From Minisyncoccota bacterium (GTDB lineage: Bacteria; Patescibacteriota; Minisyncoccia; UBA6257; JAGOQP01): DNA of 51,148 bases. Location of the stretch: the NCBI GenBank assembly GCA_017991375.1, contig JAGOQP010000001.1, positions 1-51,148 on the forward strand, given 5' to 3'. The position numbers were made by a program, and so were the translations under genes. Under the pieces are notes generated by a model. The model ran no database searches. It was not told the DNA's origin and saw only the letters and a program-made list of their open reading frames with translations. Shown here in pieces: positions 2,719 through 44,294 of this stretch. Numbering within the stretch: the stretch's first letter is position 1; each line of letters starts with the position of its first letter.

Positions 2719-2725
2719 AGAAACT

Positions 2726-3141
2726 GGTGCGCTGGCAGCTACTGTGCTCTTTTTGAGTACAGAGGAAATTCCGGACATCCCACAATACGTTTTTGCGTGT
2801 TGTGCGACGCGTAGCGGTTAACGGCCGTCGGGCGTAAGCCTCGAGGTGCGAACAGAGACGTCTTAACGCGAAAGCGTTAAGGTATCCCGCAAGGGATAAT
2901 TCTTCGATATAAGTCAGAGTTTTTTTGACACAAGTCAAAGACCCCCTCGATTTTCTTAAAAGAAGTCGAAGGGTTTACCCTGGGCGAAGTCGAAGGGTGA
3001 AACGGCTAAATCCTTACGTGGATGCAAGACCGTACCTACTTTTAGTGGGGGAGTCGCAAGGCCATTTGGCTCGAGCGTATGAGTAATTATACGCACAGAT
3101 AAATTGCTGCCGTAGTACAGAATCCGGATTATAGCGCGCCG
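2726..3141 (+). ncRNA. rnpB: RNase P RNA, bacterial type A
   Basis: Universal blocks are recognisable. AGAGGAAATTCCGGAC matches the P4 5' strand (cf. GAGGAAAGUCCGGGC). ACAGAATCCGGATTAT matches the P4 3' strand (cf. ACAGAACCCGGCUUAU). GTGCGAACAGAGAC, AAGGGTGAAACGG and AGATAAATTGCTGCC are also present. P1 pairs GGTGCGCT (2726-2733) with AGCGCGCC (3133-3140). No ORF; own promoter and terminator. Ends are +/-5 nt. Confidence 0.9.
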
Positions 3142-3155
3142 CATAATATCAAAAA

Positions 3156-39199: not shown

Positions 39200-41545
39200 A
39201 TGGGTATATTTAAATTGAGTATATCTTTGATTTTTTCTTGTGTTTTATTTTTTGGTCTTAGTAGCGATATTTTTGCTGCGGTTAAATATGTCAACGGTAA
39301 CGCGTCGACATATACATCAATCAATTATCCAACTCCTAGTTCTGTATGGGGGGTTGGTAATGATACCACTGGAGACGGATCTATTAATGCTCCATGGGCA
39401 ACCATAGAGAAAGCTCTTGAAAGCTCTATGCTAACCAGAGGCGATACATTATATGTTGCCTCAAGTACTTACACAGATACTACTCCCGATCAAATAGCTG
39501 TAGCCTTTGGGGTTGGTAGCGGTAATACCTATATTATTGGAGATGGCAATCCTGTTTTTAATATGTATTCAAATCCAAGTCAGACATGGAACTTCACTTT
39601 GCTTACGAATGTTGATGGCCTTGTTTGGGATAATATAGATATCACAAACAACTCCTCCGTCACAGAATATACTTTTAGGATACCATCTGCTGGGACCTTT
39701 ATATTTAAAAATTCGTCAATGAATCTTGGTAATCCTGGTACGAACTACGCGCTTTTTTACTTAGTGGGCACTTCTAACACTATTGTTAATGTGCAGTCAA
39801 GCTTTCTTGGTGGTTGCCGTGGGAGCTGTTTTTTTGCCGATAACACAGGAACTAGTTCAATAACTTTATCATCAAGTGTTATAAAAGATACCGACAAACT
39901 TATTCAGTATAACGATCCAATTAGCACATATATCTTTAATAACACATTTGAAGATTTCAGTCCGGTAGCTCTTTATTTTAACTATTCTAGTGCTGTTACA
40001 AGTACTACTGCCCAAGTTGCCAACAATATATTCATTATCGATCCTGATGATATGAAGCCGATCTTGAGAGTGTCCAACGCGATGGAAACATATTTTGCAA
40101 ACCACTTATCTGATTGGATTTTTACTAACAATATTGTTACGCCTGATGCCGATAGTGAATTGATTGACATGAATTATTCCGATGTTAACGAAATAATTTA
40201 TGGTGATCAAGGAAATGCGGGGGAGGGTGACTTGTTTTATTTCAAAAACGAAAAAAATTGGCTTATTAAAATAGACTTTGTCGATCCCACAAATAAAAAC
40301 TATGCCATTGTTGATTGCGCTTCTACTTTTGCATGTGGTCGTGGGGACAGTAGTTATCTTCCTCTGGTGGACATACTTGGTAACTCGTGGTCCGGAAACC
40401 ATATCGGAGCTTTTCCTAACCCTACGACGACGCTGAGAGCGCTTTCTTTGAATGCATCATCAACGGCATTTATTGGCGATTCTATTCTGTACGGCAAGTG
40501 GGGTGGGACGTCTTGTCCTTGTAGTCCGAGCGTAAGTGGGGATAAGGGGGTATGGTGTTGGTTCGATTACTATGACGGGGGGTGTAATTCTGGCTTAACT
40601 GTTTACGCACAAACCGACGCGGCTGATTTATTTGATGCGATGCCAAGTCAGAGAATACAAGCTATTTATTGGTGGGCCGATGCTATTATTCTCACTCACA
40701 AACCTGATACTGTCTTTATGGCAGGGGGATTAAATAATTTTGACGAATATGACGATACAACTCGACCAGGCGATTCAACTTTGGCTCAAATTGCTTCGGT
40801 CGCTGAGTATGTTATGAAGAAGGCCGAATATTGGGGGGCAACTCCAATATGGTTGGGTATTGGGGCAACTGCTGAAAATATCATGGATGAAGATGCTGGA
40901 ACGTATAATACGAGCGTAAAATCAATATGTAGCGCCAACGGATGGACTGCTTATGAAACCCTTGCTGCTATGCAATCCGCGACCTCAAGTTGGGCAGCTT
41001 ATTTTTATGACGATCTTGATCTAGGAGATGTTCATCCAAACGTTAATGGGCATGCATTAATGGCTAACATGATAACCACTCCCACTATTACATTGCTTTC
41101 TTCTGCTTCTGATGGGACTATTTCTTGGATGACCAGCGAAGAATCTTCATCATTGGTTGACTGGGGTAGTACCTTGTCCTACGAGAATGGAACACTAGAA
41201 CATAATACGTCTACCTTTGTTACTGACCATTCAGTTACTATTCCTGTGAACGCATATCCTTGCTCGACTATTTATTTCCGCGCTAGATCGCGTGACGCGA
41301 TAGGAAACGAAGGATCTATGCTGGGTAATTTTATTTCTTCTGGGTGTTCTATTCCAACAACAGCAACTGTTACTATCCCTCCTCAATCGCGACCCAAGAG
41401 TTTCACTAGGTTACATATTCAATCAGATGATTATTCATTTGCCTCACCAGATGATCAAAGAACTATATTGATAAAAACTTTGATTCAGCTCCTTTACGAT
41501 GTGATTGAAAAAATGAGAAAGCTTAGTGAATTATTGAATAACTAA
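39200..41545 (+). CDS. large secreted multidomain protein (beta-helix-like, SGNH/GDSL-like, FN3-like)
   Basis: Signal peptide. N-terminal GDGSINAPWATIEKALES...GDTLYVASSTY is typical of right-handed beta-helix proteins. The middle section has FIGDSILYG ... DVHPNVNGHALMA (GDS and DxxH of SGNH hydrolases). The C-terminal segment TISWMTSEESSSLVDWG...IYFRARSRDAIGNEG is FN3-like. Confidence 0.7.
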   Translation: MGIFKLSISLIFSCVLFFGLSSDIFAAVKYVNGNASTYTSINYPTPSSVWGVGNDTTGDGSINAPWATIEKALESSMLTRGDTLYVASSTYTDTTPDQIAVAFGVGSGNTYIIGDGNPVFNMYSNPSQTWNFTLLTNVDGLVWDNIDITNNSSVTEYTFRIPSAGTFIFKNSSMNLGNPGTNYALFYLVGTSNTIVNVQSSFLGGCRGSCFFADNTGTSSITLSSSVIKDTDKLIQYNDPISTYIFNNTFEDFSPVALYFNYSSAVTSTTAQVANNIFIIDPDDMKPILRVSNAMETYFANHLSDWIFTNNIVTPDADSELIDMNYSDVNEIIYGDQGNAGEGDLFYFKNEKNWLIKIDFVDPTNKNYAIVDCASTFACGRGDSSYLPLVDILGNSWSGNHIGAFPNPTTTLRALSLNASSTAFIGDSILYGKWGGTSCPCSPSVSGDKGVWCWFDYYDGGCNSGLTVYAQTDAADLFDAMPSQRIQAIYWWADAIILTHKPDTVFMAGGLNNFDEYDDTTRPGDSTLAQIASVAEYVMKKAEYWGATPIWLGIGATAENIMDEDAGTYNTSVKSICSANGWTAYETLAAMQSATSSWAAYFYDDLDLGDVHPNVNGHALMANMITTPTITLLSSASDGTISWMTSEESSSLVDWGSTLSYENGTLEHNTSTFVTDHSVTIPVNAYPCSTIYFRARSRDAIGNEGSMLGNFISSGCSIPTTATVTIPPQSRPKSFTRLHIQSDDYSFASPDDQRTILIKTLIQLLYDVIEKMRKLSELLNN

Positions 41546-41697
41546 ACTATTCACGCATTTTTTGATTTTTGTAGTTGTAAACATTTGATATGCAAACAAA
41601 AACTTTTCCACTTGACATTTTTATTGATTGGTACATAAGATAGTATCAGAACAAGTGCGCGGAATTTCCAGCGTGCGACCACCAGGGGGAGGTGACC

Positions 41698-42240
41698 ATG
41701 TCTGCCGCTTTGGATCTTGCTTTCGAGCGTCGGGTTCGTCCTTTGTTGAGCACTGTTGGAGAGTTTATCGTTCCTTTAAACAGAATGTTGCTTCAAGAAC
41801 TTGTTCTTATGTCCGGAACATCTGTTTCTGACAAGTCCTTGCTTAGAGGATTGGGGAGGAACGTATGCGTTGGCGCTCGCTTCGGTGTTCGACTTGCTCG
41901 ACTTTCGGGTTGTGTAACCTGGCCAATTGTTGAGCAATTTCTTGCGGGTACTCGACAACTCTCTCTTGCGCACGTATTTTCAACAAAGCTCTTTCTTGCT
42001 GATCAGCAAAGAAAAAATCCTACTCTGGCGCGTCTGGTTGAGGCCAACTGGGTTTCGCTGGGCCCAACAACCATCATCCAAGAGCATAATAATCAGGGGG
42101 AATGCGTGAGATCTACCCCCTTTCTTTCTTGGGAGGGGCGTGTCGGCGGATCTGGCAACATGAGCCACAAGTTGATGAAGATGGTTTTGGAGGGCCACGT
42201 GCCTCCAGGAACTATCTTTCTAACCAGGTTTGGAGAGTAA
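41698..42240 (+). CDS. hypothetical protein (180 aa)
   Basis: GGGGGAGG lies 6 nt before the ATG. Promoter TTGACA (41612-41617), 18 nt, TAAGAT. A hairpin follows the stop. G+C is elevated. No family recognised. Confidence 0.5.
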   Translation: MSAALDLAFERRVRPLLSTVGEFIVPLNRMLLQELVLMSGTSVSDKSLLRGLGRNVCVGARFGVRLARLSGCVTWPIVEQFLAGTRQLSLAHVFSTKLFLADQQRKNPTLARLVEANWVSLGPTTIIQEHNNQGECVRSTPFLSWEGRVGGSGNMSHKLMKMVLEGHVPPGTIFLTRFGE

Positions 42241-42470
42241 TGTTCTTTTATGCGCCGTCCTTTTGAACACGCGCATACTCGGGCGTGAAAAGGGCGGTTT
42301 TTCTTTTCCCACGTTTTCCACAGGAAGCTTTTGTTTTGTTTATTTATTTGCTATACTAATAGTAAGAGAACGATGTCATGTGAGGTGGCACTGTTCTATG
42401 CTAAAAAGAGCGCTGCAGAAGCGTTCTTTTTAATTCTTTGGTAAAAATAACCATTTCTTCATTTTGCTGC

Positions 42471-42548
42471 TAAGGATTAATAATCAACGAGTAATGATTA
42501 TCTCTTATCTTGGTCAATGATTAACGATTAAAGATTAATGATTATCAT
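42471..42548. repeat. stop-dense low-complexity spacer
   Basis: The tract reads taaggattaataatcaacgagtaatgattatctcttatcttggtcaatgattaacgattaaagattaatgattatcat. Confidence 0.7.
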
Positions 42549-42587
42549 CTCTTGACTTTCTCTTTTTGTGCGTGTTACGATATGGTT

Positions 42588-43114
42588 AGTAACTTGTCAA
42601 TATCGAGTTCGCATCGAGCATGGCTTGGGTGCGAGGTGACCCGTGGCTTCTTTGGAAAAGAGCGCCTTTCGTTTCCGATTGGTAAGGGATGCTCTGCTCA
42701 AGGCGAGCAGACGAGGGGTGCGCGATCATCTCTGGGGAAGGTTGTGGCAAGCTCATAGACGCCACGCTTGAGGGGGATGATCAATAGAGTCGACAAAAGG
42801 TGAGGAGTGGCCAACGAGACAGCCCTGAGTTGCCGATGAGGTGGCGACTCTTGTTTGTCTGCGGAGGCGGCCGGCCATAACCCTCCATGTCGTTGTCGAC
42901 GCTATGCTCTTTCCAAAATAAGCGTCATCTCGCTCTTGTCACGGTGCGAACTCGATTCTCTCAAACGTATGGGGCCGGGCTGGCTAACGAAGCAGTCGCA
43001 ACACTCGGAGTAACAACGGTACGTCTAACACCTCCTTTCTTCGATGTCGTGTGTCTCTCCCAGCCCAGCCCCACCAAATGTCGCGGCGACCTCCTTGGTC
43101 GCCGCCTTTTTTTT
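42588..43114 (+). ncRNA. about 525-nt GC-rich structured RNA candidate of unknown class
   Basis: Promoter TTGACT (42552-42557), 18 nt, TACGAT. Perfect terminator GCGGCGACC-tcctt-GGTCGCCGC plus T8 (43083-43114). Only short, compositionally odd ORFs. Confidence 0.5.
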
Positions 43115-43126
43115 AAAACAAAAATC

Positions 43127-43154
43127 AAAAACCCTCTCTTAAGAGAGGGTTTTT
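43127..43154. terminator. bidirectional intrinsic terminator
   Basis: AAAA-ACCCTCTCTT|AAGAGAGGGT-TTTT, a perfect 20-nt palindrome flanked by A and T tracts. It serves the minus-strand gene ending at 43164. Confidence 0.75.
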
Positions 43155-43163
43155 GATCAGTTT

Positions 43164-43508
43164 TTATGATAAATATGACTCAGAGATAATTTTTTTTGCT
43201 TTTTGTAGTCGGTCGCGTTCCTCAACGGTTCTGTGGTGGTGAATGTCGGAAAAATCAATCGTGCTCCAGTTTACTCCCGTGAGATCTATTTTAAGATTTC
43301 TAACTTCCTCAAGAAGTTTTAACGCTTCGTCATACGATTCCGGTTCTCGGTCAAATGATTTTCCTTCGCGCGCAGTCGCATACAGTTGAATAAGTTGGCC
43401 CTCTTCTGTGGTAAGGTTTGATAGGGATTTTTTTTCCGCTTCTGGGGGACAACACTCATCGGCTTGCGCTCGCTTGAACCATTGTTGGAATATTTCAATA
43501 AATGACAT
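43164..43508 (-). CDS. hypothetical protein (114 aa)
   Basis: Clean ORF with a downstream bidirectional terminator. No family recognised. Confidence 0.6.
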   Translation of the reverse strand: MSFIEIFQQWFKRAQADECCPPEAEKKSLSNLTTEEGQLIQLYATAREGKSFDREPESYDEALKLLEEVRNLKIDLTGVNWSTIDFSDIHHHRTVEERDRLQKAKKIISESYLS

Positions 43509-43694
43509 AGGGTGTTAACACTACGGTAGTAGGTATTGTTAGTAAAAAGTAATTGTATGCGCATAGTATAACATATAGGTAGTTTTGTACACAAGAATTA
43601 TTCCTGGTGGGTATGCAGAATTCCTACTTGTTGTTCTTCGTCGTGTAGTGGTATACTTTTTGTGTACTTATACAAACGTAATAGCAATCACTCT

Positions 43695-44294
43695 ATGGTC
43701 AAATATATTACAGCTCTTTTTGCCGGCGTCTTTATCTTGGCTGGTATTGCAATTCCGGTCGCATTTGCGGCATATGACAGTGGTACATTCGCAAACGATA
43801 CCACTATCCACATAAGCAGTTTAGGTATTGATCTTGTTGTTGCTGGGGGATCTCGAGTAAGTCAGATGCATGTAATGCCGGACTCGGTTGAATTTATATT
43901 GGACGCTGGGTCATCGGTTACTGTTCGCTCATACGATCATTATGCCCTCAACAATGCGGTTATGCAACCACTATGCAAAGAAAATTATTCGGAGGTATCG
44001 CTTCAGGCCGAGTCGTGGAAAACTCTTTTGATCACTCCATCGTTATCGCGCTGTTCGGGGTTTGTTCCTAGCGGAGGGGCTATTGTTCCATCTGGTTCTG
44101 GTGGATCGGTACATACCGTCTCAACCGCAAGCACTTCTTCAATAGTAATCGCAACTACCACTTCTTCAACCACGACGACGTCTGTGGGGATTGACGTGGT
44201 TACCCAGTTACGTCTCCAACTTATTGAGCTTCTCAAACAACTTATTTCTCTTCTGATGATGAAATTACAGTCCCATACTCAAATAGCAAACTAA
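43695..44294 (+). CDS. hypothetical secreted protein
   Basis: Signal peptide MVKYITALFAGVFILAGIAIPVAFA, a Ser/Thr-rich segment and a C-terminal amphipathic helix. It lies immediately upstream of the adhesin paralogue. Confidence 0.6.
   Translation: MVKYITALFAGVFILAGIAIPVAFAAYDSGTFANDTTIHISSLGIDLVVAGGSRVSQMHVMPDSVEFILDAGSSVTVRSYDHYALNNAVMQPLCKENYSEVSLQAESWKTLLITPSLSRCSGFVPSGGAIVPSGSGGSVHTVSTASTSSIVIATTTSSTTTTSVGIDVVTQLRLQLIELLKQLISLLMMKLQSHTQIAN

Follow-up and report, generated by a model that had tools for sequence, protein, structure and literature searches.

Three proposed transcription units with different histories at one locus of a 687-kb Patescibacteria genome: an orphan protein gene, a conserved small RNA candidate and a lineage-specific structured RNA candidate

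We describe here a 1.5-kb locus (41612-43114) lying within a 51,148-nucleotide (nt) window, contig C3:1-51148, of a 687-kb Patescibacteria genome (686,659 base pairs (bp) on 12 contigs, 96.7% complete, with a guanine-plus-cytosine (GC) content of ~44%, and of 44% in the window). The locus carries three units, all on the + strand, that we refer to as (a), an open reading frame (ORF) of 180 amino acids (aa) at 41698-42240; (b), at 42363-42433; and (c), at 42588-43114. We read the locus as three independent transcription units with different histories and not as one obligatory protein-RNA system: (a) is a monocistronic gene for a cytoplasmic 180-aa protein, an orphan confined to a genus-level clade; (b) is probably a small conserved RNA, independently transcribed and linked to (a) by inheritance; and (c) may be a lineage-specific orphan structured RNA gene that is not an obligate partner of the (a) protein, a reading that we believe and doubt in about equal measure.

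The comparison that separates the units involves two other lineages. The first is L006, a Logan contig from SRR32414324 with a copy of (a) that is 87% identical, and which covers (c) only over 42588-42843; the second, more distant and the only one known besides L006, consists of four contigs (L011-L014) carrying P0003, a homologue of (a), and occurs in SRR12799665-71. On these four the order is a 182-aa gene, a short terminator, a (b) homologue, ~80 nt, a convergent 114-aa gene and a 195-aa gene. The 114-aa and 195-aa proteins of L011 are 68% and 57% identical to those of window 43164-43508 and 43662-44294, and the order (a)-(b)-114 aa-195/210 aa is common to the window and L011-L014. Without counterpart in L011 are the spacer at 42437-42551, all of (c) and a palindromic terminator at 43123-43158, such that the (b) terminator there faces the 114-aa gene directly. 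Since L011-L014 hold (a) and (b) without (c), (a) travels with (b) and not with (c), and the idea put forward in a preliminary description of this DNA, that the protein and a 525-nt RNA might form a co-occurring system, is not borne out. Either an insertion of (c) in the window lineage or its loss in the L011 lineage would fit the two lineages. A search for more loci by way of the 114-aa neighbour returned only L011, and two clusters in a collection of 5.8 billion proteins.

Sigma-70-type promoters, with consensus hexamers at a spacing of 16-18 nt, were found for (a) and (c), and a -10 element only for (b); intrinsic terminators (a GC-rich hairpin, then a T-run) were found for (b) and (c). Promoter-like sites number 8, against 3.6 +/- 1.9 in shuffles, and terminator-like sites 11, against 2.6 +/- 1.4. 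All of the sequence features named in the preliminary description are present, the sole displacement being that of one helix arm by ~8 nt. Its picture of a ‘GC-rich’ locus holds for (c) and (a), which at 55% and 49% GC exceed the 44% of the window; at 36%, (b) is not GC-rich.

The features of gene (a) are as follows.
41612..41641, + strand: promoter of (a), sigma-70-type TTGACA-18-TAAGAT, 10/12 matches
41686..41695, + strand: canonical Shine-Dalgarno (SD)-like GGAGGTGACC before the ATG of (a), from sequence
41698..42240, + strand: gene (a), 180-aa orphan protein under purifying selection (pN/pS, the ratio of non-synonymous to synonymous differences, 0.19 versus L006)
42252..42307, + strand: terminator hairpin of (a) with its T-tract, from sequence and fold

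The TTGACA-18-TAAGAT promoter stands at 41612-41641 as had been described, and L011 keeps a counterpart, TTGACA...TAGGAT, plus ATCAGAACA after it; the GGAGG before the gene is retained in all three lineages (L006, GGGGGAGGTGATTATG; L011, AAGGGAGGCCTTATG). Against L006, at a difference level of 13%, 45 of 71 differences in (a) fall at third codon positions, and pN/pS is 0.19 in the annotated frame as compared with 1.0 and 1.7 in the other two, and 41698-42240 therefore encodes a protein under purifying selection. Its only homologues are P0002 (89% identical) and P0003 (50%), both full-length at 180 and 182 aa. Scanned in full with HMMER, 1.84 billion representative proteins yielded only the L006 copy and P0003; a word-indexed search of 5.8 billion clusters agrees, and pattern scans of GTDB genomes and JGI metagenomes gave no further (a) loci. 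No match to (a) was found in Pfam, NCBIfam, PHROGs or the PDB, and neither (a) nor its neighbours have a Pfam match at E <= 0.1; the 180-aa ORF is real and, as had been proposed, of no recognisable family. The AlphaFold check suggested for this protein was run, and the AlphaFold2 model from a three-sequence alignment (pLDDT, the predicted local distance difference test score, 33) is too poor for fold comparison; among PDB chains, nothing matched a profile built from all three homologous sequences at E <= 10. An XRE-type helix-turn-helix, a candidate prompted by IVEQFLAGTRQLSL, was set aside on the same profile result and the empty Pfam and NCBIfam searches.

Downstream, the (a) terminator is by far the most diverged segment in the comparison with L006 (32/65 columns, window 42241-42300 against L006:610-675, with indels), though flanked by segments 94-99% identical, and in both strains it still reads as hairpin plus T-tract; the hairpin at this site is shorter in L011. 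Against a background of z = -0.8 +/- 1.2 (14 random 400-nt windows of this genome), the fold z over (a), -1.1 to -1.9, is nothing special; reference RNAs of the genome score -9.4 (RNase P) and -2.4 (transfer-messenger RNA, tmRNA). Upstream, at 39200-41545, lies the ‘large secreted protein’ gene, whose 781-aa product begins with a signal-peptide-like stretch and carries a GDSL-type lipase/acylhydrolase domain (Pfam PF13472, E 1.4e-9). L011 has a DedA/VTT-domain protein gene upstream of its (a) homologue in place of the 781-aa gene, so synteny begins at (a).

Unit (b) and the elements ahead of it comprise the following.
42314..42333, + strand: conserved box TTTTCCACAGGAAGCTTTTG with palindrome TTCCACAGGAA (42316-42326), candidate activator site
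42352..42357, + strand: -10 element TATACT of (b), conserved in L006 and L011
42363..42433, + strand: unit (b), candidate small RNA of ~70 nt made up of hairpin, linker and terminator (fold z -5.3)

In the predicted fold, a 12-bp hairpin (42367-42397) with the invariant loop GUGAG is joined by the linker UAUGCUA to a bidirectional intrinsic terminator at 42402-42432; the latter and the TATACT had both been noted before. Comparison with L006 gives 1 change in 71 nt (at 42385), 2/79 over 42358-42436 and 3 from the box to the end of the terminator, making (b) the best-conserved piece of the locus, while 4-fold sites of (a) differ at 19/88. L011 keeps TATACT together with the hairpin loop and the linker, and (b) sits directly behind the (a) homologue in all three lineages, L011-L014 included. 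All of the predicted pairs (23/23) are standard in both distinct sequences, with 2 changed on both sides, one per helix (G-C to A-U; U-A to C-G), and 4 changed on one side via G-U. Conservation and pairing are thus plain from the alignments, and the small hairpin unit of the preliminary description is genuine, although the compensatory changes identify a conserved structured RNA only weakly: with just two distinct (b) sequences the shuffle control of pairing (133/500) is without power. A covariance model of (b), run over 301 genomes of the order, matched terminator hairpins only, and a 21-base core pattern gave none in GTDB and one JGI match on an unrelated GC-rich contig, which we read as chance. 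Antisense targets for the (b) loop were not found in the genome.

No good -35 hexamer precedes the TATACT of (b). The box at 42314-42333 is identical in L006 and 19/20 in L011, where the flanking proteins are merely 50-68% identical, and its palindrome TTCCACAGGAA, a possible transcription-factor site, is centred ~43 nt before the presumed (b) start. We suggest from the lack of a usable -35 together with the conserved palindrome upstream that the (b) promoter is probably activator-dependent, with TTCCACAGGAA in place of a -35 region. The sequence TTCCACAGGA occurs once elsewhere in the genome (C6:7965-7974, minus strand).

For unit (c) and its surroundings, we distinguish the following features.
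42437..42551, + strand: AT-rich spacer of a genome-wide GATTAATGATTA tract family (low-stringency blastn; direct repeats D1; tandem GATTAAA)
42552..42581, + strand: promoter of (c), TTGACT-18-(TG)TTACGAT (hexamers, TG before the -10)
42588..43114, + strand: unit (c), ORF-less structured transcript candidate of ~527 nt (fold z -5.46)
42602..42663, + strand: P1 5' arm, predicted to pair with 42906-42956 in helices of 15, 4, 3, 10, 4, 8 and 4 bp (minimum free energy (MFE) and centroid structures; inverted repeats I2 and I4)
42664..42905, + strand: three predicted branches within P1, A (42664-42719), B (42724-42782) and C (42784-42905)
42906..42956, + strand: P1 3' arm (predicted structure, inverted repeats)
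42970..43073, + strand: 3' domain of (c), closed by UGGGGCCGGGCUGG / CCAGCCCAGCCCCA (fold z -4.9, predicted helices)
43083..43114, + strand: intrinsic terminator of (c), GCGGCGACC-UCCUU-GGUCGCCGC then T8 (9 pairs, 8 of them G-C; hairpin 43083-43105)
43123..43158, no strand assigned: perfect palindrome, bidirectional terminator for the convergent 114-aa gene (inverted repeat I1)
43164..43508, - strand: orphan gene for a 114-aa protein, convergent to (c) and with 68% identity to the gene after (b) in L011

The preliminary description had seen in (c) an ORF-less, strongly folded unit running from promoter to terminator, and this stands. Its TTGACT-18-TACGAT promoter is confirmed at 42552-42581 and is extended by a TG ahead of the -10; the terminator hairpin at 43083-43105, followed by T8, and the helix CTGCTC-aaggc-GAGCAG (~42695-42711) are likewise in place. 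The displaced arm belongs to the 3'-domain helix, where GGGGCCGGGCTGG is present at 42970-42983 and its partner lies at 43060-43073, not 43051-43064. Overall, the predicted architecture is one of a closing stem of ~48 bp, with interruptions, around a three-way junction, followed by a distinct 3' domain of 104 nt and the terminator; the fold z is -5.46 for the whole, with -5.1 and -4.9 for core and 3' part, respectively. The strand-biased GATTAATGATTA tracts that mark the spacer have dozens of weak blastn matches on all large contigs.

Unit (c) has no recognisable family. At the Rfam gathering score none of 4227 models matched 41612-43114, and permissive filters at E <= 10 returned only terminator-driven matches of 13-31 bits (42402-42466 and 43079-43199), hence no family for (b) or (c) at any threshold tried; the models covered include OLE, GOLLD, ROOL, HEARO, raiA, 6S, signal recognition particle (SRP) RNA, tmRNA, RNase P, group I/II introns and small ribozymes. 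It is single copy in the genome; blastn found none in 60 relatives, phages or plasmids, and two pattern scans of viral contigs were empty. Covariance models R2 (3' domain) and R3 (branches A and B) matched only this genome among the 301 of the order; R3 matches the window and L006 only, and neither model finds anything on L011-L014. Several specific candidates were considered and rejected. A tmRNA reading of GGGGCC...CCCCACCA fails in that ARAGORN places the tmRNA on another contig (C10) and nothing here, the transfer RNAs and RNase P RNA likewise lying outside the locus; SRP and 6S readings have no model match, and (c) is not conserved in relatives. A mobile element was rejected on the single copy, with none elsewhere, and a phage or plasmid origin on the lack of a blastn match. 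The direct repeat CGATGTCATGTG / CGATGTCGTGTG between (b) and (c) is, by estimate, at chance level for a region of this size. There is no tandem or direct repeat family inside 42588-43114, and (c) is consequently not a TIGR- or CRISPR-like array.

Nor does (c) look like the remains of a protein gene, the possibility of a frameshifted gene at 42588-43114 raised in the preliminary description finding no support. All six frames carry stops, a six-frame Pfam scan at E <= 1 is empty, which also disposes of a pseudogene of a known family, and tblastn of the six frames against the genome returns self only; an alternative genetic code was rejected, with TAA or TAG besides TGA in all frames. The N-terminal likeness MSAALDLAF / MASLEKSAF, which had suggested a paralogue of (a), finds no support, tblastn searches of (c) with (a)-family queries giving a best E of 0.2-0.6 (544-nt database) and matches scattered over frames, and no translated similarity to any family or paralogue points to a decayed gene. 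Public gene calls place two ORFs inside (c), both singletons; a called ORF of 58 aa has lost its ATG in L006. An NCBI-annotated 89-aa hypothetical protein (42887-43156) is without an SD, reads through the (c) terminator and is a singleton among 5.8 billion clusters; this call is probably spurious.

We propose, then, that transcription of (c) would run between an extended -10 promoter of its own and the strong intrinsic terminator, with no conserved protein encoded, and that (c) may have arisen or inserted after the split from the L011 lineage, along with the AT-rich spacer and the second terminator. The unit is present in three further assemblies from different studies, identical bar one T in the T-run (L008 is one T shorter); a fourth contig ends ahead of (c). 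Contigs of this organism are present in SRR11088371, ERR7015365, SRR11235434 and SRR31774764. In the stretch shared with L006, 10/256 positions differ (3.9%), as against 19/88 (21.6%, p = 2e-6) for 4-fold sites of (a) and 10/115 (8.7%, p = 0.08) for the spacer. The promoter differs from that of L006 at 6/36 positions, with a spacer 2 nt shorter, and keeps TTGACT, TGn and TAnnnT.

A number of observations weigh against a functional RNA here. Unit (c) is absent at the L011 syntenic site and from the 301 genomes of the order, and, given its absence from the nearest other lineage, the clade can do without it. The 10 substitutions include no compensatory change; 3-4 break MFE pairs, two paired positions became a mismatch, and the observed set falls at the 6th-7th percentile of random sets for retained stability. 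Homologues with compensatory changes, the mark of a conserved RNA, were thus not found for (c), and the lack of co-conservation and covariation that the preliminary description named as telling against its RNA candidate is largely what we see. Synonymous divergence in (a) moreover falls from a pS of ~0.4 to 0.15-0.20 in the last third of the gene, so that recombination may have made the downstream segment younger, and the divergence of (c) is not significantly below that of last-third (a) sites (p = 0.12). The fold z of -5.46 is also alike on both strands, which leaves structure silent on which strand matters.

These points feed an alternative in which (c) is non-functional: either a lineage-specific, GC-rich and hairpin-rich insertion, or a decayed SD-led monocistronic cassette that keeps its promoter, SD/start and terminator. 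Presence in two close strains only, relatives nowhere and no covariation would all follow, equal z on both strands fits inverted repeats at the level of DNA, and GAGGTGACCC-GTG within (c) is as far from its promoter as the SD of (a) is from its own. Saying this, 3.9% divergence is below that of gene (a) (13%), of its 4-fold sites and of the spacer, the promoter elements survive six changes and a 2-nt deletion, no frame resembles a protein family or (a), and a z of -5 is unusual among ordinary sequence of this genome; we consider a non-functional (c) unlikely, though a contender to be taken seriously.

The P1 5' arm holds GAGGTGACCC-GTG, the start of a 42-codon ORF (42643-42771), and (c) might accordingly be read as a folded mRNA for this Arg-rich peptide, its SD-like GAGGUGAC locked in a 10-bp helix with 42924-42933 in a hok-like fold-back. 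In keeping with such a role, GAGGTGACCC-GTG mirrors the GGAGGTGACC-ATG of (a), start and stop of the ORF are intact in L006, and the fold-back that sequesters the SD-like motif appears in both MFE and centroid predictions. The ORF has, however, changed by 5 non-synonymous and 2 synonymous differences (pN/pS ~0.8) and is less conserved (7/129) than the rest of covered (c) (3/127); the peptide is not hydrophobic, its exact sequence is absent from 15 billion called proteins, and ~75% of the transcript would be untranslated. We find this reading distinctly unlikely. Extremely improbable, in our view, is that (c) is a non-autonomous element resembling a miniature inverted-repeat transposable element (MITE), bounded by ATCGAGTTCGCATCG / CGGTGCGAACTCGAT: a 15-bp inverted repeat, extended to ~50 bp, does surround a 240-nt core, and there is presence/absence between lineages, yet neither the multiple copies, terminal inverted repeats nor target-site duplication of a MITE or non-autonomous insertion sequence were found. 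There is one copy without flanking direct duplication, no such ends occur in the viral collection, the covariance model finds none in 301 related genomes, and the repeats do not coincide with the ends of the segment missing in L011 but fall within it.

How a (c) transcript might act is a question bound up with translation initiation in this organism. The 3' end of the 16S ribosomal RNA (rRNA) gene (C11:2777-2800, locus L021) reads GAAUCAAUUACAUA instead of GAUCACCUCCUUU and has no CCUCC anti-SD; it aligns to the Rfam small-subunit (SSU) model through the last position, with GAAUCAAUUACAUA where the consensus has GGAUCACCUCCUUU, on a contig of 4.5 kb for which mis-binning of the 16S is possible. 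The ‘strong SD’ that had been assigned to (a) is therefore a qualified one: GGAGGTGACC is present and its GGAGG conserved, but the 16S offers no CCUCC partner and the motif cannot act by classical pairing with that rRNA. Across the upstream regions of 516 long ORFs there is no purine enrichment, and GGAGG occurs in 16 (~3%), (a) included, against 4.8 expected. Two side observations concern the new tail AUUAC: its complement GTAAT precedes 19 ORFs against 6.3 expected, a figure that is uncertain given the whole-genome background, and there is partial complementarity between the GATTAATGATTA tracts and the altered tail (GUAAU-GAUU, where full complementarity would give GUAAUUGAUU). About half of Parcubacteria are documented to have lost the anti-SD (Tsurumaki et al. 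2022, PMC9297842). The likeness to those organisms lies in the altered 16S end and in most genes being without an SD; the passages of PMC9297842 consulted describe no minority of genes with perfect canonical SDs and no independent RNA carrying CACCUCCUUUCU.

That sequence, CACCUCCUUUCU / CACCTCCTTTCT (43029-43040), is held by the apex of the (c) 3' domain, is identical to the canonical 16S 3' tail and has three copies in the genome; in the predicted fold the apex is largely unpaired, and the terminator loop of (c) carries ACCTCCTT. Of the mechanisms conceivable for (c), the one we favour, speculatively, is a trans-acting base-pairing regulator in which the UCCUUU of CACCUCCUUUCU and the UCCUU of the terminator loop would be exposed, these pyrimidine-rich apices then pairing with GGAGG-type leaders in the small set of SD-led genes, neighbouring (a) included. 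The leader of (a) ranks 7th of 644 in predicted duplex energy with the (c) apex, a rank that is due to the motif itself and so is not independent evidence; the pairing mechanism, as modelled, is a tentative step and quite unlikely. A bolder variant has (c) as a detached anti-SD, a stable trans-acting RNA that would expose a replica of the canonical 16S 3' end (CACCUCCUUUCU, plus a fainter likeness over ~50 nt). It would bind GC-rich genes with perfect GGAGGUGA leaders and control their translation or stability as regulator or decoy, and the GAGGUG(A/G)C elements of (a), (b) and (c) would form one pairing network. Aligned with gaps to a canonical 16S 3' end, (c) scores 33, a value reached by 5/2000 shuffles and owed mostly to the 12-mer, and one other non-rRNA window of the genome outscores it; we regard the detached anti-SD as very improbable.

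Of the 24 genomic sites of the GAGGTG[AG]C motif, the + strand of this locus has 4, distributed among (a), (b) and (c), and 0/20,000 dinucleotide shuffles reach 3 such sites, for a motif chosen after seeing the data. Both this recurrence and the anti-SD resemblance are post hoc, which should be added to the points against a functional (c). The motif nonetheless invites a further alternative, that (a), (b) and (c) form a protein-RNA system in which the 180-aa protein would bind GAGGUG(A/G)C in its own leader, in the (b) loop and twice in (c). Apart from the count of sites, (a) and (b) are adjacent in every case, and the branch C hairpin (42827-42850) reads AUGAGGUGGCG over its loop and 3' stem, as in (b), the two sharing (A/G)UGAGGUGGC(A/G). 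Set against this are the lineages in which (a) and (b) are present and (c) missing, a motif picked post hoc that is simply the canonical SD core, an (a) protein without a recognisable RNA-binding domain or usable model, and an adjacency which, in three close lineages, may be plain synteny; such a system is decidedly improbable. We return to (c) as a lineage-specific orphan RNA gene, with the even-handed caution expressed at the outset.

Beyond this locus, the high density of stable-RNA-like sequence that had been ascribed to the window is real, but is not peculiar to it. At least five further folded regions elsewhere, each ORF-free, GC-rich and without an Rfam match at E <= 0.001, make it a genome-wide property; none of the following five resembles (c) in sequence.
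C3:112606-113369: ORF-free folded region, fold z -6.5
C6:31440-32271: ORF-free folded region, fold z -11.0
C5:51099-51638: ORF-free folded region, fold z -5.1
C5:92263-93033: ORF-free folded region, fold z -3.3
C8:46452-46839: ORF-free folded region, fold z -3.2

The rnpB gene claimed for the window is real as well (2723-3147, 80.7 bits, E 6e-23), at a score below Rfam gathering. SRP RNA (RF00169, RF01854) and 6S RNA (RF00013) were not detected in the 96.7%-complete genome, by searches that gave matches in 11-12 (SRP) and 5 (6S) of 14 control genomes; a divergent SRP RNA may be hidden among the orphan structured regions. A group I intron model matches weakly between the 23S and 5S genes on C8 (L017:3712-3825; 31.5 bits, E 1e-4), short of the gathering score.

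If (b) and (c) are expressed, this 687-kb symbiont genome would gain two RNA genes without a family, and lineage-specific structured RNAs may take up more of the DNA of ultra-small candidate phyla radiation (CPR) genomes than expected. The presence and absence of (c) between close lineages provides a natural experiment on the origin of such RNAs, and the puzzle of why perfect SDs and an anti-SD-like sequence in (c) are kept, though the 16S is without an anti-SD, bears on translation start in Parcubacteria. Without expression of (c), the locus is an ordinary one, in which a structured insertion accompanies an orphan gene and a small RNA.

Among known regulators, Staphylococcus aureus RNAIII is a 514-nt RNA that pairs with ribosome-binding sites through C/U-rich loops. 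Unit (c) is similar in size, in its many hairpins, in pyrimidine-rich apical loops complementary to GGAGG-type leaders and in an embedded short ORF; it differs in having no sequence or structural homology to RNAIII and in targets that are predicted only, and because the 16S lacks an anti-SD, GGAGG leaders are a small special class in this genome. Type I toxin mRNAs of the hok/sok type are characterised by a 5'-3' fold-back. Unit (c) would resemble them in a length of ~400-500 nt and, as far as the predicted fold goes, in long-range 5'-3' closure that would sequester an SD-like element before a short ORF. The 42-aa product MASLEKSAFRFRLVRDALLKASRRGVRDHLWGRLWQAHRRHA is, in contrast to their small hydrophobic toxins, Arg-rich with no hydrophobic stretch and gives no indication of purifying selection, and the sole minus-strand promoter candidate over (c) is a 9/12 match at 42942-42915, with none good over the 5' end.

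The arrays of TIGR-Tas systems, found in CPR bacteria and phages, consist of regular ~36-nt tandem units, as alternating repeats or tandem stem-loops (PMC12045711). A small protein gene beside a structured non-coding stretch, a rho-independent terminator and a CPR genome are common to both; (c) departs from these arrays in its nested fold with long-range pairs and its lack of a repeat family, and no adjacent Nop-domain (Tas) protein was found, (a) having no Pfam match.

Finally, the OLE, GOLLD, ROOL and raiA-motif RNAs are defined by covariation across many species, whereas (c) comes from two near-identical strains and shows none; it matches none of their models even at E <= 10, and its helices are long and near-perfect where theirs are ornate. 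What (c) shares with these RNAs is a length of several hundred nt without an ORF, a GC content above that of the genome, strong predicted structure, a promoter of its own and an intrinsic terminator.

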